DNA from: a candidate division WOR-3 bacterium
GTDB taxonomy: Bacteria > Hydrothermota > Hydrothermia > JBDRYB01
Assembly: GCA_039803205.1 (NCBI GenBank)
Contig: JBDRYB010000001.1
Location: 1-64,000 of the forward strand
DNA length: 64,000 bases
Reading direction: 5' to 3'
In this document: positions 51,692 to 62,814 of the stretch, piece by piece
Layout: each line of letters begins with the position of its first letter
How positions within the stretch are numbered: the first letter of the stretch is position 1
Program-made: the position numbers and the translations under genes
Notes under the pieces: generated by a model
Databases searched by the model: none
What the model was told of the DNA's origin: nothing
The model's input: only the letters and a program-made list of their open reading frames with translations

Positions 51692-52648
51692 ATGAAGGTT
51701 GCTGTTGTCGGAGCGGCTGGCCTGGTTGGAAGGACCATGCTTCGCGTCCTTGAGAAGAGGGGCTTTCCGGTCTCGGAGCTGGCGGCTTATGACAAGCTAT
51801 CGGGAGAAAGTCTGCTCTTCCGCGGCAATAAGCACCTGTGCATCAGGTTAACTCCAACATCCGTCAGGGGTTTTGACCTCGCGCTTTTTTCGGCAGGTGC
51901 GGATGTCTCCCTGAAATACGCGCCCCTGTTTGCCAAAAAGGGCGCGCTAGTGGTTGACAATTCCTCCGCCTGGCGCATGCATCCCAAGGTTCCACTTGTC
52001 GTCCCAGAGGTGAACCCAGAGGCGCTCATGGATATTCCAATGGGCATCGTGGCCAATCCAAATTGTTCAACGATCCAGATGGTCGTGGCTCTCAAGCCCC
52101 TGGTTCGCTTCGGCATAAAGGAGGTCTTCGTGGCGACATATCAGGCGGTCTCAGGGGCTGGAAAGGACGGGATTGACGCGCTCATATCGGAAGAGAAGGG
52201 CAAGAGGTCGTCAAATTCCCCTCACCTCGGCCCAATTCACAGGAATGTCTTGCCCGGAATAGGAAACTTTGAGGAGGGTTTCTACGAGGAGGAGACGAAG
52301 CTCATCCGTGAGACAAAGAAAATAATGGGCCTTGATGTTCCCGTTCATCCGACCGCGGTGAGGGTTCCTGTGATAGCTGGCCACTCCGAGGCCGTTGCGG
52401 TAAGGCTAAAGAAGAAGGTAAGCCTTGAGGAAATAAAAGCTTCTATGGGAGAGCAGGAGGGCCTCGTCCTCAGCGATGGTTTTGTCACCCCGAAGGAGGC
52501 CGAGGGCAAGGATGAGGTCTTTGTCTCCAGGCTCAGATTTTCGCCTGATGATCCGAGGGTTCTCCTGATGTGGGTTGTCTCAGATAACCTTCTGAAGGGA
52601 GCCGCTCTCAACGCGGTTCAAATAGCAGAGAGGGCCCTATTGCGGTGA
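51692..52648 (+). CDS. asd: Aspartate-semialdehyde dehydrogenase
   Basis: VVGAAGLVG, DNSSAWRM, ANPNCSTIQM, DNLLKGAALN. Confidence 0.97.
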   Translation: MKVAVVGAAGLVGRTMLRVLEKRGFPVSELAAYDKLSGESLLFRGNKHLCIRLTPTSVRGFDLALFSAGADVSLKYAPLFAKKGALVVDNSSAWRMHPKVPLVVPEVNPEALMDIPMGIVANPNCSTIQMVVALKPLVRFGIKEVFVATYQAVSGAGKDGIDALISEEKGKRSSNSPHLGPIHRNVLPGIGNFEEGFYEEETKLIRETKKIMGLDVPVHPTAVRVPVIAGHSEAVAVRLKKKVSLEEIKASMGEQEGLVLSDGFVTPKEAEGKDEVFVSRLRFSPDDPRVLLMWVVSDNLLKGAALNAVQIAERALLR

Positions 52649-54274
52649 AAGAGGAGCGTCCCCGAACAGCCTCTTCCTCAGCCTGTTATAGTATTGCCTG
52701 TATTCGTCAATGTGGCGGTCATAGGGGAATTCGGGAAGGAGCTCTCCTTTCGCCAGCTCGCGGGCCCGGGCGAGGAGTTCCTCTTTCTCGGCGGGATCCC
52801 GGGTCGCGTCAGCGAGCCTCATCAGGTTCTCAAGCTCGCCAAGGTCTGTCCAGACATCCTCAAGCTGGTAATAATCCCCCTTTTTGATGAGGAGATCAGG
52901 CCTACCTAAGTTCCGTCTGGCGACCACCATAGCTGTGTAGAGCAACTCCCTGGATCTTTCGTTGTATTTTCTTCTCGGCCATATCAGATAAAAAAGGTGA
53001 TCGTAGGGCAATCTGTGTTTTGGTGAAAGGAGCAGATAGACGAATGCTCTGGCTGATTTCTTGTTCCGCCACTCGCTCAAATGAACCTCTCTTCGGTCGA
53101 CAAATATCCTCATCTCACCGATCAAATGTGCCCTTATACCGGATTGTCTCCTCTGATCAACCCCATAGGTAAGAAGGGGATAAATTGCCTCAAGAAACGG
53201 GCCTAAAATGGGATCACGACTCATAGCCCGGTAAGAAGGGGCAAGGGGAACCAAGAATCTCATGGCCTCATGGAAGACCGTACCGCCGTGCTTCCATGCC
53301 AAAAACGCGGAGGAGAGACCTGTCACGAAAGCCTCTACTGGTTGATAAGCGTTAAGATAATCTCTGGCGGCCTTCAAAAGCTCATGAGGAAGGTCCGCTT
53401 TGTCCTCAGATAATAGGGCCTCTATCTCTCTTAGGGCCGCGAGCTCACCCAGTCCACCTTTTTTAGCAAAGTCCATGCACCTATCCACCATTTCCCTTGG
53501 AGGAGGCTCCAGACCAGCAAATCTAGCGATTTCAAGGGCTTTCGCACAAGGAAACGCTGAGTATGCTGAGCCTATTTCCAGATATCCCAGGGCTGACTTC
53601 GTGTATAACTTCACCGCTCCTCCTAGATCCCCTAGCATCCTGAGAGCAAAACCCTTGACCTCCAGCAAGGCAGAGAGATGGCGCTTATCCTTTTCCGTTT
53701 TGATCAAGGATCTGAGCATATCAAGAGCCCTTTCCGGCTTGCCAGTTATTATGCTCAGAAGGGCCAGCAGATACCTGGCTCTGGGACTCTTTGACGAGGT
53801 TAGCGTGGGAAGAACTCCTTTTATATCCATGTAAAGGGTGTCGTATTCGGCTCTGAAAAACTTCAGGGAAAGGAGGTTCACTTTGGCAAATGACCACAAC
53901 TCCCTATCCTCAGCGTGCTCAGCTATGTCCAGGGCCTTTAAATAACAGTTCTCAGCAACCTCCATCTCCCCTGTTTGTCTGTAAACTAGCCCAAGCATGC
54001 CATATATCCTTCCGGTCATCTCCGGTTCGCCGCGAACACGAGCGAGAAGCCTTCTCCCCTTTTTGATGGCTTCTGGAGCACGGGAACCCAGAACTGCGGC
54101 GCAGAAGTCCAAGAACGCAAAACCCAAAGGGTCCTCAGATTTCAGCTTTTCGACATAATTAGCAAAGGCTCCGGGGGAGCCTGTCTTCAGGATCTCTAGC
54201 CCTCTTTCAACCCTTTCTAAGAGCTTCACCCCGATATGATAAAATTCAGAATGGAGCAAATTCAAGTCGCGCAA
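52637..54274 (-). CDS. TPR + C-terminal winged-helix/BTAD-like (SARP-like) regulator, paralog A
   Basis: N-terminal TPRs; LIGEMRIFVD...W..K...F.YLLL......D.L...WP......LY.....RR.L...W.DL. Confidence 0.8.
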   Translation of the reverse strand: MRDLNLLHSEFYHIGVKLLERVERGLEILKTGSPGAFANYVEKLKSEDPLGFAFLDFCAAVLGSRAPEAIKKGRRLLARVRGEPEMTGRIYGMLGLVYRQTGEMEVAENCYLKALDIAEHAEDRELWSFAKVNLLSLKFFRAEYDTLYMDIKGVLPTLTSSKSPRARYLLALLSIITGKPERALDMLRSLIKTEKDKRHLSALLEVKGFALRMLGDLGGAVKLYTKSALGYLEIGSAYSAFPCAKALEIARFAGLEPPPREMVDRCMDFAKKGGLGELAALREIEALLSEDKADLPHELLKAARDYLNAYQPVEAFVTGLSSAFLAWKHGGTVFHEAMRFLVPLAPSYRAMSRDPILGPFLEAIYPLLTYGVDQRRQSGIRAHLIGEMRIFVDRREVHLSEWRNKKSARAFVYLLLSPKHRLPYDHLFYLIWPRRKYNERSRELLYTAMVVARRNLGRPDLLIKKGDYYQLEDVWTDLGELENLMRLADATRDPAEKEELLARARELAKGELLPEFPYDRHIDEYRQYYNRLRKRLFGDAPLSPQ

Positions 54275-54292
54275 GATGATAATATCATTTTG

Positions 54293-54324
54293 TTTCGGAA
54301 CTTTTTCGGAGGATCGCTTATAAT
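54293..54324 (+). promoter_or_regulatory. Direct-repeat operator plus -10 box
   Basis: TTTCGGA at 54293 and 54304 (period 11), 8 nt, TATAAT 54319-54324. Confidence 0.65.
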
Positions 54325-54352
54325 ATGGGCATGTTAAAAAGGAGTGAGCATC

Positions 54353-55879
54353 ATGACAGAAGCATACACGCTAATAGGCCTTTTGGTGTCCCAGGTCTCT
54401 TTTGCTAGATCCTATGGAGGGCCTGATACTGAGAGCGTTCGTGGAATAGTCCAAACAACCGATGGAGGCTTCATTGTTGCGGGAGAGACAAAGAGCTTTG
54501 GGGCAGGGAGCTATGATTTTATGGCCATGAGGCTTCTGAGCACGGGGGATCCCTTCTGGGTAAAGACTCTCGGAGGGACCGGTGACGACAGGGCCTTCTC
54601 AGTAGCTCTGGCTATTGACGGTGGATGCGTCATCGTAGGAGAAACAAAGAGCTATGGCGTAGGGGACTATGATGTTTTGGTTATGAAGCTTGGCCCTGCT
54701 GGGGGATTCCGGTGGGCAAAAACCTATGGAGGGTTATTGCGAGAAAGAGGCACCTGCATCAAGCCAACCAGCGATACGGGATACATCCTCGCGGGATGGA
54801 CGGTTAGCTCAGGCCAGGGGTCCGCGGATCTCCTCGTGATGAAAATGGATTCAGCGGGCAATCGCGTCTGGACCAGGACATTTGGAGGTGACACCTCTGA
54901 TTACGCGCATCAAGTGATACAGACCCAGGATGGAGGCTTCTTGGTTGCGGGAACGAGTAGGAGCTTTGGGGCAGGCGACTTTGATTTTCTCGTGCTCAAG
55001 CTCAACAGCTCTGGCACGCTGAGCTGGGCCAGAGCAATTGGTGGCCCGGGCATAGAAGACGCCAGGATCCTGAGCCAGACTACGGATAATGGCTACATAG
55101 TCGGTGGGTGGACGAACAGCTTTGGCAGTGGAGACTACGATGTTCTCCTTGTGAAGTTGAATTCATCCGGAGGTTTTCAGTGGGCAAAAACCTATGGGGG
55201 TGCCAGCCTTGATTGGGGGACATCCGGCATCCTCCTCCCGGACGGGGGTTTCCTCGTTGTAGGAGTCACTTTGACTTACGATCCCGAAGGCGATCTATTT
55301 CTTCTCAGGCTGGACCCGGCAGGGAATCCTGATTGGCTTAAGGTTCTCAAGGAGGAGGGAGATGGGGTAAGTGGCGCGACTACTGTGATACAAACTGGAG
55401 ATGGTGGTTTCGCGGTTGGAGGTTGGAAGGGTGACTCGTGGGATTTTCTGGTCATAAAGACCGACCAAGACGGAAACTATGACGAAGACTCCAATTGCAT
55501 GAAGCCCGACATCCTTACAAGCCTGACCATTATGCCCAATCTTGAAACTCTGACGCTCGGGGCAAGCTGGGTTCCTCTAGTATCCAACCCAAACCCATCC
55601 CAGAATACGCCCTCCTTGACGATGACAAACGTGACCTGTGAACCTGTTTATGAGGAAGTTGGGGAATCTCTGGTTGAGCCGAATGACATAGTCTGCTATC
55701 CGATTCCAAGGGCCATTGCGTTTATTTCTTCCTGTGCCGCGGAGATAAGTATCTACTCATCTGACGGGTGCGTGGCCTATTCGGGCACTCTAGAGAAGGG
55801 CAAAAATATGATACCCATTGACCGAGGCATTTACTTTTGGCAGGCAGGAGCTTATAAAGGAAAAGCCGTTGTGAGGTAA
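54353..55879 (+). CDS. Secreted beta-propeller repeat protein with T9SS-like CTD (paralog of 18858-20372)
   Basis: 52-aa W.KT.GG...DGG...G.T.S.G.G..D repeats; C-terminal GIYFW...KAVVR. Confidence 0.85.
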   Translation: MTEAYTLIGLLVSQVSFARSYGGPDTESVRGIVQTTDGGFIVAGETKSFGAGSYDFMAMRLLSTGDPFWVKTLGGTGDDRAFSVALAIDGGCVIVGETKSYGVGDYDVLVMKLGPAGGFRWAKTYGGLLRERGTCIKPTSDTGYILAGWTVSSGQGSADLLVMKMDSAGNRVWTRTFGGDTSDYAHQVIQTQDGGFLVAGTSRSFGAGDFDFLVLKLNSSGTLSWARAIGGPGIEDARILSQTTDNGYIVGGWTNSFGSGDYDVLLVKLNSSGGFQWAKTYGGASLDWGTSGILLPDGGFLVVGVTLTYDPEGDLFLLRLDPAGNPDWLKVLKEEGDGVSGATTVIQTGDGGFAVGGWKGDSWDFLVIKTDQDGNYDEDSNCMKPDILTSLTIMPNLETLTLGASWVPLVSNPNPSQNTPSLTMTNVTCEPVYEEVGESLVEPNDIVCYPIPRAIAFISSCAAEISIYSSDGCVAYSGTLEKGKNMIPIDRGIYFWQAGAYKGKAVVR

Positions 55880-55895
55880 CCCACTTGTAGTCACT

Positions 55896-55946
55896 AGCCC
55901 CGGCCGGTAAAATCATTGCACCTCCCGTCCCGGCCGGGGGTTTTTA
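55896..55946 (+). terminator. Large-loop terminator-like hairpin, copy 1
   Basis: CCCCGGCCGG / CCGGCCGGGG stem, 22-nt loop, followed by T tract. Confidence 0.75.
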
Positions 55947-55965
55947 TTTCCCAGATGAGAAGCCC

Positions 55966-57795
55966 TTATTGCCTATCCCAACCCAAACCCCACATTCCCC
56001 TGGTCCAAGCCCTGCCGTTCCTGCAGGGGGTTCCTGCTGGATAGTTGTCCTTGCCTGATAGGTCAAGGAATATGCCAACGCCTCCAGCGTCCCGGGCCCT
56101 GTTCGCATCGCCGAGGCCTATGTCCTCCCTGGCGGAATATGTGTCATCCCCATCAGAATCCACGAAGATCCCAACGGAATTCGTCAAACCTATACCGAGG
56201 CCGCCGGAGACCTGGTAGTTGTCGTTGCCGCGCTTGTCAATTAGCCAGCCAACAGCGAGGTCGTGGCCCTCGCCCTGGGATGGGCCGTATCTTGAATAAT
56301 AGTGATCCGAGCCGGAGTAATCCCCGAGAAGTCCGACCGAGAGGTGGATTCCGGAGCCCTGCGCGTATTGCACAGCGGAATAGAAGTCGTCGCCAGACAG
56401 ATCGAGGAGAATGCCTGCCGAATACCAGTATGAACAGCCCTGCGCGTATACCTCGCCCTGATACAGGTCGTTGCCCTCGCGGTCCAAAAGAACTGAGATC
56501 CCCCCAGAAGCGCGTGGTCTAATTCCGATTGAATAGCCTTGCGCGAACGCCCTGTAGTTGTGTTCAAGGAGGGGTTTGTGCAGGTATTCTCCTCCAGCGT
56601 AATAGACATCATCTCCCCCCACCTCGTCCAAGATAGCGCAGCCCTTGACCGATGAGAAGGCCTGAGCGCAAGAGAATGCCCTCATAACATCATCCCCTCC
56701 GCCCTCGTGCATGTAGGAGACCCCGAACATGGCCGCGGATTGTGCGAAAAAGCCGGAGTAATAGAGATCGTCTCCGGCCTTATCCGAGAGAAAACCCGCG
56801 CCGAAAAGCCCCATACCCATTGTGTAATGAGGGGCCCGATACAGGTCATCCCCTGAGAGGTCAACCAGGGCACCGTAGCCCATGAGGCCAGCGCCAAGGG
56901 AGACGAAATCTTCAGCCAGATAAGCGTCATTGCCGCAAAGATCAATCACGGCCGAGAGGGGCCTCCCCAGAAACCCAACCGATCCCCCAGGCCTCCCGTA
57001 GTAGGCGTCTGAGCCACCCTTGTCCAGTATAAGGTGATATAGGGCTGTGGTCTCGGCCGGATGAACATCATCCCCTTCTCCTTTGACCAAAACCCTCCAC
57101 TGGCCAGCGGAATAGCTGCCCTCAGGAATTCCCTGTGAGAACATCGTGATCTCCTCTACCCCCATTGAGAACGCTAGGGCTCCGAGGGCTAGCTCACGCC
57201 AATCAACCAGAGCCGCCAACTCCAGTATCCTTGAAGAGTCATCGCACCAGGCTGTGTCCACCGGAAACCCAAATTCCCTGAGCAGACAGCCCCGCAGAGT
57301 GTCCAGAAGGGTATCACCCTCGTCCGCCCAAAGGGAAAGGGAGTAGTAGAGGAGGGTATCAATCTGGGGCCTGCTCAGCCGCGAAAAGGCTTTTTGCCTG
57401 TGAGCATCAGCCTCGTCCCAGGAGGCTCTGAGGTATGCGAGGCCAGCTTCCCATCCCTTTTTGCCCGCCATGGCCTTTTCAAATCTCTTTCGCATCTCGT
57501 TCGTATCCTTGGGAGAGAGCCCGACATCGAGAAGGGAAAAGCCGAGGAACATGGTGGATGTCGGATTACCGGTTGATCTTGCTATTTCGGCCCTGCAGGA
57601 GTCAGCAAAATGAGGCACATCCATGGGCTTCGCCATCAATCTGTCAACCGTCTTGAGCCTGAATGAGTCGCGGTCGGCCCAGTCCTTGTTGTATGAGAGG
57701 TCCTCTGGGGCCAGATTAATGTAAGCTAGGGCCTGGATGATGGCACTTGTTTCGGCTGTATCAAGGAGAAACTGCGAGAGAAGCAAAAGCGTCAT
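55966..57795 (-). CDS. Hypothetical exported protein with Gly/Asp-rich D..G.D.Y repeats
   Basis: About 10 repeats of LxDxxGxDxY...Q G; short hydrophobic N-terminus. Confidence 0.75.
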   Translation of the reverse strand: MTLLLLSQFLLDTAETSAIIQALAYINLAPEDLSYNKDWADRDSFRLKTVDRLMAKPMDVPHFADSCRAEIARSTGNPTSTMFLGFSLLDVGLSPKDTNEMRKRFEKAMAGKKGWEAGLAYLRASWDEADAHRQKAFSRLSRPQIDTLLYYSLSLWADEGDTLLDTLRGCLLREFGFPVDTAWCDDSSRILELAALVDWRELALGALAFSMGVEEITMFSQGIPEGSYSAGQWRVLVKGEGDDVHPAETTALYHLILDKGGSDAYYGRPGGSVGFLGRPLSAVIDLCGNDAYLAEDFVSLGAGLMGYGALVDLSGDDLYRAPHYTMGMGLFGAGFLSDKAGDDLYYSGFFAQSAAMFGVSYMHEGGGDDVMRAFSCAQAFSSVKGCAILDEVGGDDVYYAGGEYLHKPLLEHNYRAFAQGYSIGIRPRASGGISVLLDREGNDLYQGEVYAQGCSYWYSAGILLDLSGDDFYSAVQYAQGSGIHLSVGLLGDYSGSDHYYSRYGPSQGEGHDLAVGWLIDKRGNDNYQVSGGLGIGLTNSVGIFVDSDGDDTYSAREDIGLGDANRARDAGGVGIFLDLSGKDNYPAGTPCRNGRAWTRGMWGLGWDRQ

Positions 57796-57840
57796 GTTCA
57801 AAGGTTAAACCAGAAGGAGGCTGGAAGGCAAGGACGGCTT

Positions 57841-59439
57841 TCAGGTCTGATTATCTCCGAACAGCCTCTTCCTCAGCCTGTTATAGTATTGCCTGTATTC
57901 GTCAATGTGGCTGTCATAGGGGAATTCGGGAAGGAGCTCGCCTTTCGCCAGCTCGCGGGCCCGGGCGAGGAGTTCCTCTTTCTCGGCGGGATCGCGGGTC
58001 GCGTCAGCGAGCCTCATGAGGTTCTCAATCTCTCCAAGGTCTGTCCAGACATCCTCAAGCTGGTAGAAGTCGCCTCGTTTGGTGAGCAATTGTGGTTTGC
58101 CCAGATTCCTGCGGATAGTGTAAATAGCAGTATAAAGCCACTTCCTCGTCCTGGCGTCGTATCTCCTCCTGGGCCACAGCAGATACGCAAGGTGATCCTG
58201 GGATATTCTGTGTTTAGGCGAGAGCAAGAGGTAGAGCAGAGCCATCAACGCCCTTGAGTTTCGCCACGCCCTAAGGGAAACCTCTTCCCCATCCACCTGG
58301 AGCATGAACTCACCAAGCAGGCTCGCCCTCACGCCCTGCACTGTCCTTTCGCCCTTCCCATATCTAAGCAGGGGTTCCACGCTGATCATGAATTCTCCTA
58401 GCAAAGGGTCGCGCCTGAACCCTGGGTGAAGAGGCAAGAGGGGCGCGAGTAACTTGAGGATCTTCGGGAAAACCGGGTGGTCGTCTTGCCATGCAAAAAG
58501 GGCTGCTGTGAGGCCTGTAAGGATGACCTCTATGTTCTGGTTGACCCTATAGTATCCGAGTGCGGCGTCAAAAAGGAGCTCGGTGGATCTTTTGGGGTCC
58601 TCACACAGGAGTGCTTCGATCTCCTGGGCCCCTGCCTTCTCTCCTGACGAACCCCTCCTGGCAAGTGCCAGACATCTCCTTACAAGCTTCTTGGGAGGAG
58701 GCTCCAGCCCAGCGAGTCGCGTGAGCTCAAGAGCCTTGGCACAAGGGAAGGTCGCGTAGGCAGAACCGAATTCAATGGCGATGTTCATGGACTCCACATA
58801 TAGATCCCTCGCCTCCTGTAGTTTCCCCATCATCCTGCTGGCCAATCCCTTCATCTCTGTAGCACCCAAAAGGACTATACTGCCGCCCTCGCTGATGATG
58901 GAATCCAAGAGTTTCAATGCCTTCTCTGGGTTTCCACGGATTATCTCAAGTGCGGCCACTAGGTACTTGGCACCCCCGGTGATCTCTGGACTCCTCACCC
59001 GCGCGAGGAATCCCCTTGCTTCGTTGTAAAGCGGTTCGTATTCAGCTCTAAAGAATCTGTTGGTCAGAAGTCTCAATCTTGCAATGGAGGCCAGGGTCAG
59101 GTCTCCCGCCTGTCCGGCCATATCCTCTGCTCTAACAAAGTATCCATCGGCTGCATCCAGTTCTCCTATTAGTTCGTAAGCGGTGCCAAGGCAGTTGAAA
59201 AGAAAACTCGCAAGCCTGGGCTTGCCCGAAACTCTTGAAATGAGCCTGGTTCCTTTCCTTATGGCGCTAGAATTGTGATTGTAGACCGCCAGGCGAACCT
59301 CCAGTAGTTCCGCGGCCAGAAGGTCTTCAAGCTTAAGGCAACGAATGTATCTCATTAAGTCATCCAACTGGCCTGACTTCATCATTGTTAGGCCGCGTTC
59401 AATCCTATCCAAAGTATCCACGTCTAGAGTATAAACCAA
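57841..59439 (-). CDS. TPR + C-terminal winged-helix/BTAD-like regulator, paralog B
   Basis: Same architecture as 52637-54274; shared FPCAKALE..R.AGLEPPP; near-identical C-terminus. Confidence 0.8.
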   Translation of the reverse strand: MVYTLDVDTLDRIERGLTMMKSGQLDDLMRYIRCLKLEDLLAAELLEVRLAVYNHNSSAIRKGTRLISRVSGKPRLASFLFNCLGTAYELIGELDAADGYFVRAEDMAGQAGDLTLASIARLRLLTNRFFRAEYEPLYNEARGFLARVRSPEITGGAKYLVAALEIIRGNPEKALKLLDSIISEGGSIVLLGATEMKGLASRMMGKLQEARDLYVESMNIAIEFGSAYATFPCAKALELTRLAGLEPPPKKLVRRCLALARRGSSGEKAGAQEIEALLCEDPKRSTELLFDAALGYYRVNQNIEVILTGLTAALFAWQDDHPVFPKILKLLAPLLPLHPGFRRDPLLGEFMISVEPLLRYGKGERTVQGVRASLLGEFMLQVDGEEVSLRAWRNSRALMALLYLLLSPKHRISQDHLAYLLWPRRRYDARTRKWLYTAIYTIRRNLGKPQLLTKRGDFYQLEDVWTDLGEIENLMRLADATRDPAEKEELLARARELAKGELLPEFPYDSHIDEYRQYYNRLRKRLFGDNQT

Positions 59440-59476
59440 TTGGGGAATCCACTGCTATATGCGCATTTGTCCTAAC

Positions 59477-59511
59477 TTGCTAGAGTTTTGCTAGAAAACC
59501 CTACTTATAAT
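59477..59511 (+). promoter_or_regulatory. Direct-repeat operator plus -10 box
   Basis: TTGCTAGA at 59477 and 59488 (period 11), 10 nt, TATAAT 59506-59511. Confidence 0.65.
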
Positions 59512-59547
59512 TTAGGGCCTTATGAAAAAGAGACACGGAGGTGTCAG

Positions 59548-61152
59548 ATGATAGGGATGATAGGAATCTTTATCGGTGCAACCACGGTCAACTGGCCCTG
59601 CTGGGGCGGAGACCCGGAGCGCCAGGGATTGCAGACCACTCCAGGAGCGTTCATAAGCGCTCCTTCAACAAAGTGGAAAGTCCAGACCTACCAACTCGTC
59701 AGGTGGGAATTCTCAGCGATAGCCGATGTTGACGGCGACGGCCAGATGGAGGTCCTCGTAGGATGCTACAACGGATACCCCGGCTTCTTTTGCATCAATG
59801 GCTCCACGGGCACAGTTGAGTGGTCGGTTAACACATACCTAAGCGGAGTGCTTGCGGGTCCGGCCGTAGCTGATGTGGACAACGATGGCCAGAATGAGGT
59901 GATCTTCGCTAGCAGTGGTTCTGGTGCGGGAGACGATACGGTCTATTGTTACAGCGGAATGGGCTCTCGGAAGTGGGCCTTTTGTAATCCTTCTTCTGGG
60001 AGATACTGGTCCTCGCCGGCCATCGTTGATCTAGATGGAGACGGCAATATGGAGGTGTTAATAGGCAATTCTGACGGGGGGACAGACACTCTGAGCAGAA
60101 GAAGCCTCTATTGCCTGAATGGCTCTAATGGCACCCAGAAGTGGTCATACATTTCAGGCAACTCGGTGGACTGTGCATCCCCATCTGCGGCTGATGTTGA
60201 TGGCGATGGCAAGCTAGAAGTGCTCTTCGTGAACTGGGCTAATAGGCTCTTCTGCATCAGCGATACCGTGGTGGCCGGCAACGACACATGCAGGGTGGAG
60301 TGGACATACCCATTCGGTGCTAGCGGTGGGATACAGTGCACCCCGGTTCTTCTCGATCTTGATGGCGACGGTAAGATGGAGATAGTTACTGCCAACGCGA
60401 ATTTTAACTCTAATAACCTCTACTGCTTGAACACAGCCACCATCTCAGGCAACGATACAGCGGTTGTCAAGTGGACCTTCTCTGCTGGAAGATATATATA
60501 CTCCTCTCTATCCGCCGCAGACGCTGACGGAAATGGTATCATAGATGTTTTCGTTGGTAGTTGGGACTCCCTATTATACTGCCTGGACGGAGCAACTGGC
60601 GCCAAGAAGTGGCAATTCGGAAAGGTGCCGGAGATACTCTATACACCTATATCAGTGATGGACGCGGACGGCGCTCATCCCAGCGGCGACCCTGGGCTTG
60701 AGGTTCTTCTTACAGCCAAGGACACCCTATACTGTGTGAACGCGGAGGATGGCTCTCTGCTTTGGAAAGCGAGGGTGGCGCCCCGTGTCAACACACCGTT
60801 CTCAGGGGACATAGACGGAGATGGGGCTTCTGAGATAATAGTCGGTGCAGACAGCGCGTTGTACGCGCTTGATACAGCAAGTCCGGTTTACGAGGGCATA
60901 GGTGACAATAACAACAACGGAGACCTCGTCCTGTTCCGGTTCACAAACAACCGCTTTTATCTTTATCTGCCAGAAGAGGATGGGATCTCAATCGCTCTTT
61001 ACGACGCTGGAGGGCGATTCGTTAAAAGTATCTTTGAAGGCCATCTGAGCTCTGGTAGCCACAACTTTGAGCTGAGTTCGGAGGCCAAGGGGGTCTACAT
61101 CGCTGTTCTCAGGCACAACGAGGGCATAAAGACCCTGAAGATAGCGAGGTAA
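59548..61152 (+). CDS. Secreted FG-GAP/PQQ-like beta-propeller protein with T9SS-like CTD
   Basis: Repeats SPA.AD.DGDG..E....LYCL.G..G..KW; LYDAGGR...GVY; SD GGAGGTG. Confidence 0.85.
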   Translation: MIGMIGIFIGATTVNWPCWGGDPERQGLQTTPGAFISAPSTKWKVQTYQLVRWEFSAIADVDGDGQMEVLVGCYNGYPGFFCINGSTGTVEWSVNTYLSGVLAGPAVADVDNDGQNEVIFASSGSGAGDDTVYCYSGMGSRKWAFCNPSSGRYWSSPAIVDLDGDGNMEVLIGNSDGGTDTLSRRSLYCLNGSNGTQKWSYISGNSVDCASPSAADVDGDGKLEVLFVNWANRLFCISDTVVAGNDTCRVEWTYPFGASGGIQCTPVLLDLDGDGKMEIVTANANFNSNNLYCLNTATISGNDTAVVKWTFSAGRYIYSSLSAADADGNGIIDVFVGSWDSLLYCLDGATGAKKWQFGKVPEILYTPISVMDADGAHPSGDPGLEVLLTAKDTLYCVNAEDGSLLWKARVAPRVNTPFSGDIDGDGASEIIVGADSALYALDTASPVYEGIGDNNNNGDLVLFRFTNNRFYLYLPEEDGISIALYDAGGRFVKSIFEGHLSSGSHNFELSSEAKGVYIAVLRHNEGIKTLKIAR

Positions 61153-61158
61153 AAACAT

Positions 61159-61214
61159 GACCGGCCGCGGAAACTTCGCACCCCCGGCACCTCCCGGATG
61201 GACCGCGGCCGGTC
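61159..61214 (+). other. Intergenic hairpin related to the two terminator hairpins
   Basis: GACCGGCCGCGG / CCGCGGCCGGTC 12-bp stem; loop contains GCACCTCCCG (61187-61196). Confidence 0.75.
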
Positions 61215-61241
61215 CGGTTTTGTGAAAACAAGGAGATTACA

Positions 61242-62750
61242 ATGTCTGACATGTATATCATAGGAATGCTGGCCTCCCAAATCCTTGGGACCTGGCCTAT
61301 GTGGGGCTATAACCCAGCACACTGGGCTGTCCAACCGGTGCCTGGCACTCATACAACTGCTCCGGTTATGAAGTGGAGTATCTCAACTGGTGATCAGGTT
61401 CAGTGGCTCTTTTCTGCCACAGGTGATGTTGATCGTGATGGCAGAAATGAGGTTCTGGCTGGCTCTTTTTCTGGAACTTTTTACTGCTTGGACGGAACCA
61501 CCGGGGCAACCAAATGGAGCTTTAACGTCGAATCCGAATCACCGATAGAAACCTGCCCGGCTCTTGCGGACATGGCTGGAAATGGTTCAGTAGAGGTAGT
61601 CTTCGCCACTTGGGGCGGAGAAGTCTATTGCCTTGATGGGACGGACGGGAGCGTAAAATGGCAATACGTAACCACCTACTACGATCAATACCACCACGGC
61701 CCGGTTGTCGTTGATTGCGATGCTGATGGTGATCTGGATGTTGTTATCGGAAACATATATGGAAGTCTATACTGCTTCGATGGTGAGACGGGAACGCTGA
61801 TCTGGAACGCTAACATGAGCTCCACAGAAAACTCTTCTCCTGCCGCCGGTGATATAGATGGAGATGGCAAGATAGAGATAGTTATAGGAGGCTCATCGGG
61901 GACCTATTCTTTGAACGGTTCAAACGGAGCCTTGGAGTGGTTGGCTTCAACGGGTATCTGTGCTAATTCATCTCCAGGAATAGCTGACTGCGATGGAGAT
62001 GGTCTCGCTGAGGTGATTATAGGTTCTGAGGATTATAATATCTACTGTCTTGATGGTCAAACCGGAGCCGAGAAGTGGCGTTATTCTACCGGAAACAGGG
62101 TTTGGTCTTCTCCTGTGATCCTTGATGCTGACGGAGACGGGCTTCTTGAGATAATAATAGGGAGCTTTGACGGCTACGCTTACTGTCTGAGCGGGGAATC
62201 CGGAACCCTCCAGTGGAGAACGCAGGTCGGCGACATCCGCGTGGGCATCCCTGCTGGGGATGTGGACGGCGATAACAGATATGAGGTGATCATAGGGAAT
62301 ACTAGTGGATACACATGCCTCAACGGTGAGGACGGCTCTGTTCTTTGGAGATCAGCACCATCTAGCGGCGGTAGGTCCGTTTACCTCGCGGATGTTGACA
62401 TGGACGGGTGTGTTGAAATTGTGGGTGGGTCAACCGGTTATGATATATATGTGCTTGATGATCCCGGAAACTCGTCGGGTTGTATGAGTATGGGAAAGGA
62501 TGAAGAGGGGTATGGCCCAGATTCTCCTGAATTCAAGCCCATGGGTAAAAGTTTATATCTTTTTCTCCCCGAGGATGAGCAGGTTTCTCTGAGCCTATAC
62601 GATGCCTCAGGTAAGCTCGTTCAAAAGGTATATGATGGGGTCCTGAGGCAGGGAAGTCACACCTTCAGCCCCAACATAAACGCTAAAGGTATCTACTTCG
62701 CGGTTATGAGGTATCAGAAAGGGATGAAAACCCTGAAGATTGTGCGATAA
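61242..62750 (+). CDS. Secreted FG-GAP/PQQ-like beta-propeller protein with T9SS-like CTD (tandem paralog)
   Basis: Same repeats; CTD LYDASGKLV...GIYFAV...KTLKIVR; SD AGGAG. Confidence 0.85.
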   Translation: MSDMYIIGMLASQILGTWPMWGYNPAHWAVQPVPGTHTTAPVMKWSISTGDQVQWLFSATGDVDRDGRNEVLAGSFSGTFYCLDGTTGATKWSFNVESESPIETCPALADMAGNGSVEVVFATWGGEVYCLDGTDGSVKWQYVTTYYDQYHHGPVVVDCDADGDLDVVIGNIYGSLYCFDGETGTLIWNANMSSTENSSPAAGDIDGDGKIEIVIGGSSGTYSLNGSNGALEWLASTGICANSSPGIADCDGDGLAEVIIGSEDYNIYCLDGQTGAEKWRYSTGNRVWSSPVILDADGDGLLEIIIGSFDGYAYCLSGESGTLQWRTQVGDIRVGIPAGDVDGDNRYEVIIGNTSGYTCLNGEDGSVLWRSAPSSGGRSVYLADVDMDGCVEIVGGSTGYDIYVLDDPGNSSGCMSMGKDEEGYGPDSPEFKPMGKSLYLFLPEDEQVSLSLYDASGKLVQKVYDGVLRQGSHTFSPNINAKGIYFAVMRYQKGMKTLKIVR

Positions 62751-62761
62751 TTCGCCAAATT

Positions 62762-62814
62762 AAAAAGCCCCGGCCGGTAAAATCATCGCACCTCCCGTTC
62801 CGGCCGGGGTTTTT
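62762..62814. terminator. Large-loop bidirectional terminator-like hairpin, copy 2
   Basis: AAAAAGCCCCGGCCGG...CCGGCCGGGGTTTTT; 42/44 identical to 55896-55939. Confidence 0.78.

Follow-up and report, generated by a model that had tools for sequence, protein, structure and literature searches.

Two copies of one gene arrangement are found in the 64,000-nt window analysed here, the start of contig C1 in the genome (2.3 Mb, 50 contigs) of an uncultured hot-spring bacterium of candidate division WOR-3. In each copy the gene of a regulator, R1 or R3, lies head to head with one or two genes coding for secreted beta-propeller proteins (hereafter cargo), and a box composed of direct repeats stands between them, just ahead of a TATAAT hexamer. 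We consider it likely that these regulators are one-component activators in the style of the antibiotic regulatory proteins of Streptomyces (SARPs), each of them with a private box that would take the place of -35 recognition at the propeller promoters. What was computed directly comprises the fold of the protein, the boxes with their geometry, statistics and conservation, and the covariation between protein and DNA. Both modules had been described in an earlier reading of the window (the original prediction), and both were found where it had placed them, as were the period-11 direct repeats that it had reported 8 and 10 nt ahead of TATAAT. In module 1 the heptamer TTTCGGA occurs at 54293-54299 and again at 54304-54310, with TATAAT 8 nt further on, and in module 2 TTGCTAGA occurs at 59477-59484 and 59488-59495, with TATAAT 10 nt further on, the period being 11 in both.

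The structural models indicate that the regulator is a tetratricopeptide repeat (TPR) sensor followed by a C-terminal "mini-SARP", i.e., an OmpR-type DNA-binding domain (ODB) plus the first three helices of the bacterial transcriptional activation domain (BTAD, or BTA). The AlphaFold2 (AF2) model of R1, built with 51 sequences and numbered after the 545-aa long open reading frame (ORF), has a mean predicted local distance difference test score (pLDDT) of 91.8. It consists of an all-helical TPR solenoid up to residue ~368, a low-confidence linker, a winged helix-turn-helix (wHTH) between residues 380 and 476 (beta-sheet, three helices and hairpin, with the recognition helix at 439-456) and three more helices after the wing (477-537). 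The putative recognition helices quoted in the original prediction, SRELLYTAMVVARR and TRKWLYTAIYTIRR, both lie within the predicted one. The order from TPR to wHTH is common to all 20 paralogs found in the host genome. A separate model was made of the C-terminal 176 residues (pLDDT 91.3), and for it Foldseek returned AfsR (8k60/8hvr, E 3e-6 to 1e-5, 165-173 columns) and EmbR at the top, and plain OmpR/PhoB domains next, over only ~90 columns. VIA-align gave Z 15.5 for EmbR and 15.2 for AfsR over 160-164 residues, against Z 8-10 over ~90 residues for the domains of OmpR, PhoB and ToxR, and AfsR was also the top match of the family profile in the PDB (E 0.039). The AlphaFold model of the C-terminus, which had been proposed as a check, is by its fold a SARP module (Z ~15, and ~10 for plain OmpR/PhoB), and it sits behind the N-terminal TPR sensor, which agrees with the "inverted SARP architecture" that had been suggested. 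Searches with the whole protein are governed by the sensor: Foldseek with the complete R1 model returned TPR proteins, and the full-length profile search of the PDB was dominated by them.

The period-11 repeat pattern exceeds chance in the host genome. Exact repeats of at least 7 nt with a -10 hexamer 5-13 nt further on number 26 at period 11, and between 3 and 12 at the control periods 7-10 and 12-16. With one mismatch allowed, 23 such sites were found at period 11 before ORFs with a C-terminal sorting tail of the CTD type, and 1, 1, 0, 4, 0 and 1 at periods 8, 9, 10, 12, 13 and 14. A strict box model that fixes the period at 11 and the -10 offset at 7 had 18 matches, and seven controls with other periods or offsets had 2-4. 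Gibbs alignment of 57 distinct sites (28 from the host genome and 29 from metagenome loci) placed all of them in one register, in which the 11-nt unit has the consensus yTGTTTnAGnT and two units make up a box of 22 nt. Position 8 is A in 94% and position 9 is G in 85% of the sites, while most of the variation falls at positions 3-7 and 10. In 40 of the 57 sites the distance from the box to the start of the best -10 hexamer is exactly 7 nt; in 6 more it is tied between 7 and 9 nt, and in the remainder it is 5, 6, 8 or 9 nt. Both window boxes fit the common register, each 7 nt before its TATAAT. As a side observation, T and C predominate in the 7 nt that separate the box from the -10 (~nnTTCCn), and the bases following the -10 tend to ATaGgCC over the 57 cargo promoters (in the window, 54312-54338 and 59499-59525); these biases could be contacts for the regulator or for the polymerase of the host.

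The host genome codes for 20 full-length paralogs of the ~525-aa regulator (R1 to R20), plus one C-terminal fragment, in keeping with the expanded family that had been expected. The genome-wide census of these paralogs had been named beforehand as a test, and its outcome favours the original prediction. A recognisable private period-11 box accompanies 19 of them, and in 17 (R1-R6 and R8-R18) a divergent cargo gene is found across this repeat; R7 and R19 have boxes in other arrangements, and R20 has none. At R19 the repeat (GATTGTAAGCT twice, then TATAAT) lies at the stop codon of the regulator itself and is followed by a CTD gene in the same direction, a layout also present at metagenome locus L095, which has a related regulator (L116 is a near-identical copy of L095). 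R7 stands in tandem behind R8 (C22:25116-28406), with no divergent cargo. Its box (GTGTCAGA twice) is reversed and abuts its own -35, which hints at autoregulation, and three more copies precede remote CTD genes (C2:125059, C1:149922 and C8:3972). A layout like that of R7 and R8 recurs in one sister genome and four metagenome loci (L058, L080, L084, L085 and L096). All 19 box cores differ from one another (171 pairs), the closest being those of R16 and R17, which are one base apart; R16 combines Arg403 with G3, and R17 Tyr403 with C3. Seven regulators have extra copies of their box before further genes, nearly all CTD-tailed; for some regulators the boxes, at remote loci, number two to four. 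The gaps between regulator and cargo measure 70-130 nt. The mean pairwise identity among the paralogs is 38% in the TPR domain, 54% in the wHTH and 60% in the BTAD-like helices.

Two side observations concern the history of this family. A 49-residue remnant of a regulator C-terminus (C3:70314-70460) lies beside a second R16-type box (C3:70007) that heads a run of CTD genes; it is probably what is left of a paralog that decayed, its operon having passed to R16. The R11 box, together with its promoter and gene start, is nearly exactly duplicated at C14:41237 and C14:46980, 5.7 kb apart, with one mismatch over the 55 nt compared, the second copy being near the contig end.

Regulators and cargo have promoters of two different types. 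In 27 of 28 cargo promoters no more than 3/6 of TTGACA is matched at best, with spacers of 16-18 nt, and the eight that were inspected hexamer by hexamer have CG, CC or CT at the TGn position. Such an absence of a -35, as read from these sequences, would be the mark of promoters that depend on an activator. Of the 20 promoters of the regulators themselves, 16 have TTGAnn with a spacer of 18 nt, and in 16/20 the -10 ends exactly 6 nt before an ATG or GTG that aligns with the MDT/VDT start of the regulator family. With this distance and with TTGAnn at 18 nt, the regulators are therefore probably expressed from leaderless mRNAs, starting at complete promoters, and the long regulator ORFs, which begin at TTG codons further upstream, probably extend too far. 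GGAG is present in the leaders of the cargo genes. A sigma-70 pattern scan of the window found R1's own promoter (54265-54236) and detected neither of the cargo promoters.

Regulators and boxes were also compared in pairs. Regulators were grouped by protein identity alone, and in the 29 pairs that are 55-90% identical the box core was 78% and the -10 72% identical, against 39-41% for the spacer (7 nt) and for the flanks (12 nt upstream and 12 nt downstream). In more distant regulator pairs the identity of the box core falls to the family baseline of 51%. Covariation was computed over 45 non-redundant regulator-box pairs (loci L072 and L089, whose proteins were mistranslated, were left out), and none of 300 shuffles reached the values that follow, even if these z-scores overstate the significance, as the shuffles ignore relatedness. 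The highest value joined residue 404 to box position 5 (z 13.6; Arg with G in 13/13, Asn or Ser with T in 28/31), followed by residue 403 with position 3 (z 10.3; Arg with G in 21/26, His with C in 4/5, Gly with T in 7/7) and residue 405 with position 4 (z 8.7). Further along the domain, residue 447 covaried with position 6 (z 7.2), residue 450 with position 9 (z 6.1; Asp with A in 5/5) and residue 443 with position 7 (z 6.0). The pairings of Arg with G recur across boxes with many different cores. In the profile alignment S46 and Q48 of AfsR correspond to residues 401 and 404, so that residues 403-405 are at or beside that spot. The available part of the AfsR study describes S46 and Q48 as touching the 5' part of the repeat (PMC10936776), in agreement with the pairing of residues 403-405 with box positions 3-5. 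A basic PRR(K)Y loop contains residue 434, whose covariation with box position 7 suggests that this loop may touch DNA here.

The cargo belongs to a large class. A CTD-like tail was found with two home-made hidden Markov models in 207 of the 2290 ORFs of at least 150 aa in the host genome, a very large share for 2.3 Mb. Among these are two propeller families, A with 23 members and B with 51. By a rough ORF-based count of co-directional runs headed by a box, 18/23 members of family A and 28/51 of family B (46/74 together) lie in such runs, against 10/133 of the other CTD-class ORFs; the targets of the regulators would therefore be the two propeller families, and not type IX secretion system (T9SS) cargo in general. 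The host genome has a homolog of SprA above the cut-off (396.6 bits summed), the protein from which alone the T9SS machinery was judged. The T9SS type A tail was recognised at the curated cut-off in cargos 2a and 2b, and cargo 1 falls below it. For cargo 2a the match to TIGR04183 (cut-off 23) reaches 26.2 bits, or 29.8 bits with the tail alone. The divergent sorting tail of cargo 1 had TIGR04183 as its sole match, at 15.1 bits and so under the 23-bit cut-off.

Table 1. Positions of the two modules and of neighbouring features in the window.
Feature	Position	Strand	Description
Regulator R1	52637..54229	-	Long ORF 52637-54274; likely true start GTG at 54229 (paralog alignment and promoter)
R1 domains			TPR sensor, residues ~16-370; flexible linker; wHTH, 380-476; three BTAD-like helices, 477-537 (AF2 model)
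R1 own promoter	54236..54265	-	TTGAAT, 18 nt, TATCAT; -10 ends 6 nt before the GTG start
Box 1	54290..54311	+	TTGTTTCGGAA CTTTTTCGGAG, two 11-nt direct repeats; register from Gibbs alignment of 57 sites
Cargo-1 promoter, -10 TATAAT	54319..54324	+	Starts 7 nt past box 1; best -35 match 3/6
Cargo 1	54353..55879	+	SBBP/delta-60-repeat beta-propeller (family B); Pfam DUF5122, NCBIfam delta_60_rpt / SBBP
Terminator-like hairpin 3' of cargo 1	55922..55940	+	Pattern scan
ORF between modules	55966..57801	-	611 aa, many G(D/N)DxY-type repeats
Regulator R3	57841..59421	-	Long ORF 57841-59439; likely start GTG at 59421; paralog of R1
R3 own promoter, -10 TATACT	59428..59433	-	6 nt before the GTG start
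Box 2	59477..59498	+	TTGCTAGAGTT TTGCTAGAAAA
Cargo-2 promoter, -10 TATAAT	59506..59511	+	Starts 7 nt past box 2
Cargo 2a	59548..61152	+	FG-GAP/PQQ-like beta-propeller (family A); T9SS type A tail
Terminator-like hairpin between cargos 2a and 2b	61199..61216	+	Pattern scan
Cargo 2b	61242..62750	+	Second family-A propeller with T9SS tail; TIGR04183 28.2 bits (cut-off 23)
Terminator-like hairpin 3' of cargo 2b	62793..62809	+	Pattern scan

The features of both modules are listed in Table 1. The start of cargo 1 is preceded by a Shine-Dalgarno sequence, and a GC-rich terminator-like hairpin with a T tail follows each of the three cargo genes of the window (3/3). The ORF between the modules is on the strand of R3, beginning 39 nt downstream of that gene; it had no Pfam or NCBIfam match and no paralog in the host genome, and it is not counted as part of a module. 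R1 and R3 are 51% identical as proteins. As a separate observation, the last ~200 nt at the 3' ends of their genes (52637-52850 and 57841-58050) have 88-98% DNA identity, while elsewhere the identity is ~50-57% over most of the gene, with a maximum of 61%. From the sequences, this tract, which covers the BTAD-like helices, looks like a recent gene conversion. No RNA data set was found for the stretch 52800-62700, and the DNA sets that carry it (X1-X4, from one study) are labelled "hot springs metagenome".

Close relatives of the regulators are confined to a narrow group. Among 201 genomes of the phylum, strong relatives (E <1e-50) were found only in the window's own genus (the host genome G000 and genomes G032 and G154), and E 1e-30 was attained by only 45 of 1.84 billion representative proteins, some of them fragments. 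Homologs in the protein collection are named "candidate division WOR-3", and 2 of 60 are annotated as "AfsR/SARP family transcriptional regulator". The box design is present in two sister genomes (e.g., CCGTCCAA twice and TCCGGAGGT twice) and in 36 of the 43 metagenome loci, 31 by an automatic rule and 5 by eye; of the rest, three have R7-like repeats without a -10, one is a duplicate and three have no box upstream. The distant relatives in the phylum are proteins of 587-1136 aa in which the module is also C-terminal and which combine TPR_MalT, above its cut-off, with Trans_reg_C and a full BTAD. R20 is of this type, with a weak TPR_MalT match (E 2.9e-4) and the only Pfam BTAD match to an isolated C-terminus (1/20). 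The inverted order would thus be older than the expansion, and the expanded subfamily would have lost the distal part of the BTAD later. Clusters annotated with BTAD and TPR are present in several phyla in the ESM Atlas, which gives no domain order and serves as a lead only.

The mechanism that we favour would work as follows. Two protomers would sit side by side, head to tail, on the two 11-nt repeats of the 22-nt box, which would occupy the -35/spacer region of promoters with a good -10 and no -35. The bound pair would recruit or position RNA polymerase in the manner of AfsR-type SARPs and would thereby switch on one or several operons that code for T9SS-tailed beta-propellers. Specificity would come from the variable box positions 3-7 and 10, and the more divergent TPR domain would presumably gate the activity through a paralog-specific ligand. 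The binding itself, the activation rather than repression, the two-protomer stoichiometry and the control by a ligand are what we infer from the patterns described above.

Several observations weigh against this reading. In 19 of the 20 paralogs the BTAD stops after three helices, helices 4-7 being missing, and the alignment to AfsR ends near its residue ~205, in a domain that runs to 270. The acidic E76/E77 loop of AfsR aligns with the basic PRR(K)Y loop here, and contacts with RNA polymerase must therefore differ from those of AfsR. Full-length Pfam and NCBIfam scans of the regulators gave TPR matches only, with no match to Trans_reg_C or BTAD, and Trans_reg_C matches the isolated C-termini in 12/20, weakly (best E 3.8e-5). 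No period-11 repeat was found upstream of R20, the most divergent paralog (29% identical), and no upstream box at loci L087, L095 and L116, of which L095 and L116 have a box downstream. The hairpin between cargos 2a and 2b makes the co-transcription and the control of 2b uncertain. Moreover, cores that are one base apart, such as those of R16 and R17, make cross-talk possible; of the orthogonality put forward in the original prediction, the absence of identical cores stands, and strict separation of all pairs is not assured.

Part of this evidence could also be explained if the same boxes served repressors that block RNA polymerase on the -35/spacer region until a ligand releases them. The box does overlap the core promoter, with a near-consensus -10 directly downstream of it, and the helices and the acidic loop with which AfsR contacts the polymerase are missing or changed, which also counts against activation. 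However, with no usable -35 in 27 of the 28 cargo promoters, and with neither window promoter picked up by the sigma-70 scan, these promoters should be weak when unaided and would therefore offer little to repress. SARP activators share both traits, the fixed distance of 7 nt and the 11-bp phasing from head to tail, and the regulators matched by fold, AfsR and EmbR, are described as activators or recruiters of RNA polymerase. We regard repression as quite unlikely. It is still far less probable that the repeats are promoter features copied along with gene duplication, or sites for another factor such as a common OmpR-type response regulator. The paralogous loci did arise by duplication, so that linked sequence may have travelled along, and a T..AG frame is common to all boxes. 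However, the cores all differ, they are kept in related regulators while their flanks diverge, covariation ties box bases to amino acids of the DNA-binding domain (the Arg and G pairings), and remote copies of a given box again precede CTD genes, which makes such an origin highly improbable.

The nature of the signal is a separate matter. The TPR domains might be receptors of imported peptides, similar to those of the RRNPP family, and the regulators quorum or kin switches instead of sensors of nutrients or stress; we consider this unlikely. Phage phi3T Rap with its pheromone (8rtc/8rsv) is among the best global superpositions of the TPR domain (TMt 0.64-0.65, root-mean-square deviation 5.6-5.9), domain III of MalT (1hz4) also superposes (TMt 0.58), and the relatives have weak Pfam matches to AimR and RNPP_C. 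Against this, the DNA-binding domain differs from that of RRNPP regulators in type and position, and TPR folds are generic, LGN/Pins matching equally well by Foldseek E-value. The gaps between regulator and cargo leave no space for a pro-peptide gene and none was found in them, small ORFs elsewhere not having been searched.

A literature search of limited reach returned no description of a TPR-first SARP, of SARP/BTAD control of T9SS cargo or of a WOR-3 regulator. The logic of DNA binding by SARPs is known; what stands out here is its twentyfold expansion with private boxes, and an apparent base reading by the N-terminus of helix alpha-1. The same logic would here be found in an uncultured hot-spring phylum, with inverted order and a trimmed activation domain, multiplied about twentyfold and wired to two families of T9SS-tailed propellers. 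We tentatively put forward, as a possibility rather than an expectation, that some 46 of the 74 surface-propeller genes are individually addressed through differently tuned TPR sensors and that an OmpR-type domain reads bases beyond its recognition helix. The dozens of natural cognate pairs of regulator and box could tell how a domain of this type picks its bases, and a minimal SARP lacking the sigma-binding "chair" would be a model for activation without that seat. It would also be a case of a small genome controlling a large repertoire of surface proteins, and a first handle on gene regulation in WOR-3. If the reading is true, these are ready-made, re-targetable pairs of regulator and operator.

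SARPs are activators of antibiotic clusters in Actinobacteria and carry their DNA-binding module at the N-terminus. As in AfsR, ActII-ORF4, RedD and DnrI of Streptomyces and EmbR of Mycobacterium, the WOR-3 regulators have an OmpR-type winged helix packed on the first BTA helices. They differ in that the module is C-terminal, behind the sensor, that the BTA ends after helix 3 in 19 of 20 (the SARP BTA has seven helices), that the alpha2-alpha3 loop is basic where that of AfsR is acidic, and that there is no nucleotide-binding oligomerization domain (NOD) ATPase. They are also twenty paralogs in a 2.3-Mb non-actinobacterial genome, with secreted propellers as targets and not antibiotic clusters. 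The promoters are alike too, with 11-bp direct repeats that cover the -35/spacer region and keep a fixed short distance to the -10; the available parts of two papers give as the rule for SARPs that the repeats are 11 (or 22) bp apart and that the 3' repeat is 8 bp from the -10 (PMC10936776, PMC10972967). In the accessible text of the former, BTA helices 4-7 of AfsR form a "chair" for sigma region 4, and the acidic E76/E77 loop contacts sigma and beta-prime (PMC10936776). The WOR-3 regulators have the ODB and the promoter geometry of SARPs, and they lack the N-terminal position and the complete BTAD.

Other families share the sensor or the layout. The MalT/LAL regulators, which are signal transduction ATPases that have numerous domains (STAND), also have the sensor first and the DNA-binding domain last, and the TPR domain bears some resemblance to domain III of MalT. 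However, the Walker A motif GxxxxGK[ST] is absent in 20/20 paralogs, no ATPase family matched in the regulator scans, and the winged helix is of OmpR type and not a helix-turn-helix (HTH) of LuxR type; without an ATPase, identity as a STAND regulator is ruled out. RRNPP members combine a TPR receptor with an N-terminal HTH, of Xre type in the regulators, or with a phosphatase output, and have a pro-peptide gene next to them. Their receptors (Rap, PlcR, AimR) are similar in being one-component proteins with a TPR sensor fused directly to the output, the sensor fold here being somewhat Rap-like, whereas the WOR-3 output domain is C-terminal and of another type, which speaks against membership, and the sites are direct repeats, not palindromes. 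An OmpR/PhoB response regulator is likewise ruled out by the lack of a receiver domain, the N-terminus being all-helical TPR with no Response_reg match. In the Bacteroidota, each polysaccharide utilisation locus has a dedicated regulator (hybrid two-component systems, SusR, or pairs of extracytoplasmic function sigma and anti-sigma factors). The protein families and mechanisms are unrelated and nothing here links the WOR-3 propellers to glycans, but by analogy the two are alike in having many paralogous sensor-regulators, each of them connected with a cluster of its own that codes for surface or secreted proteins.

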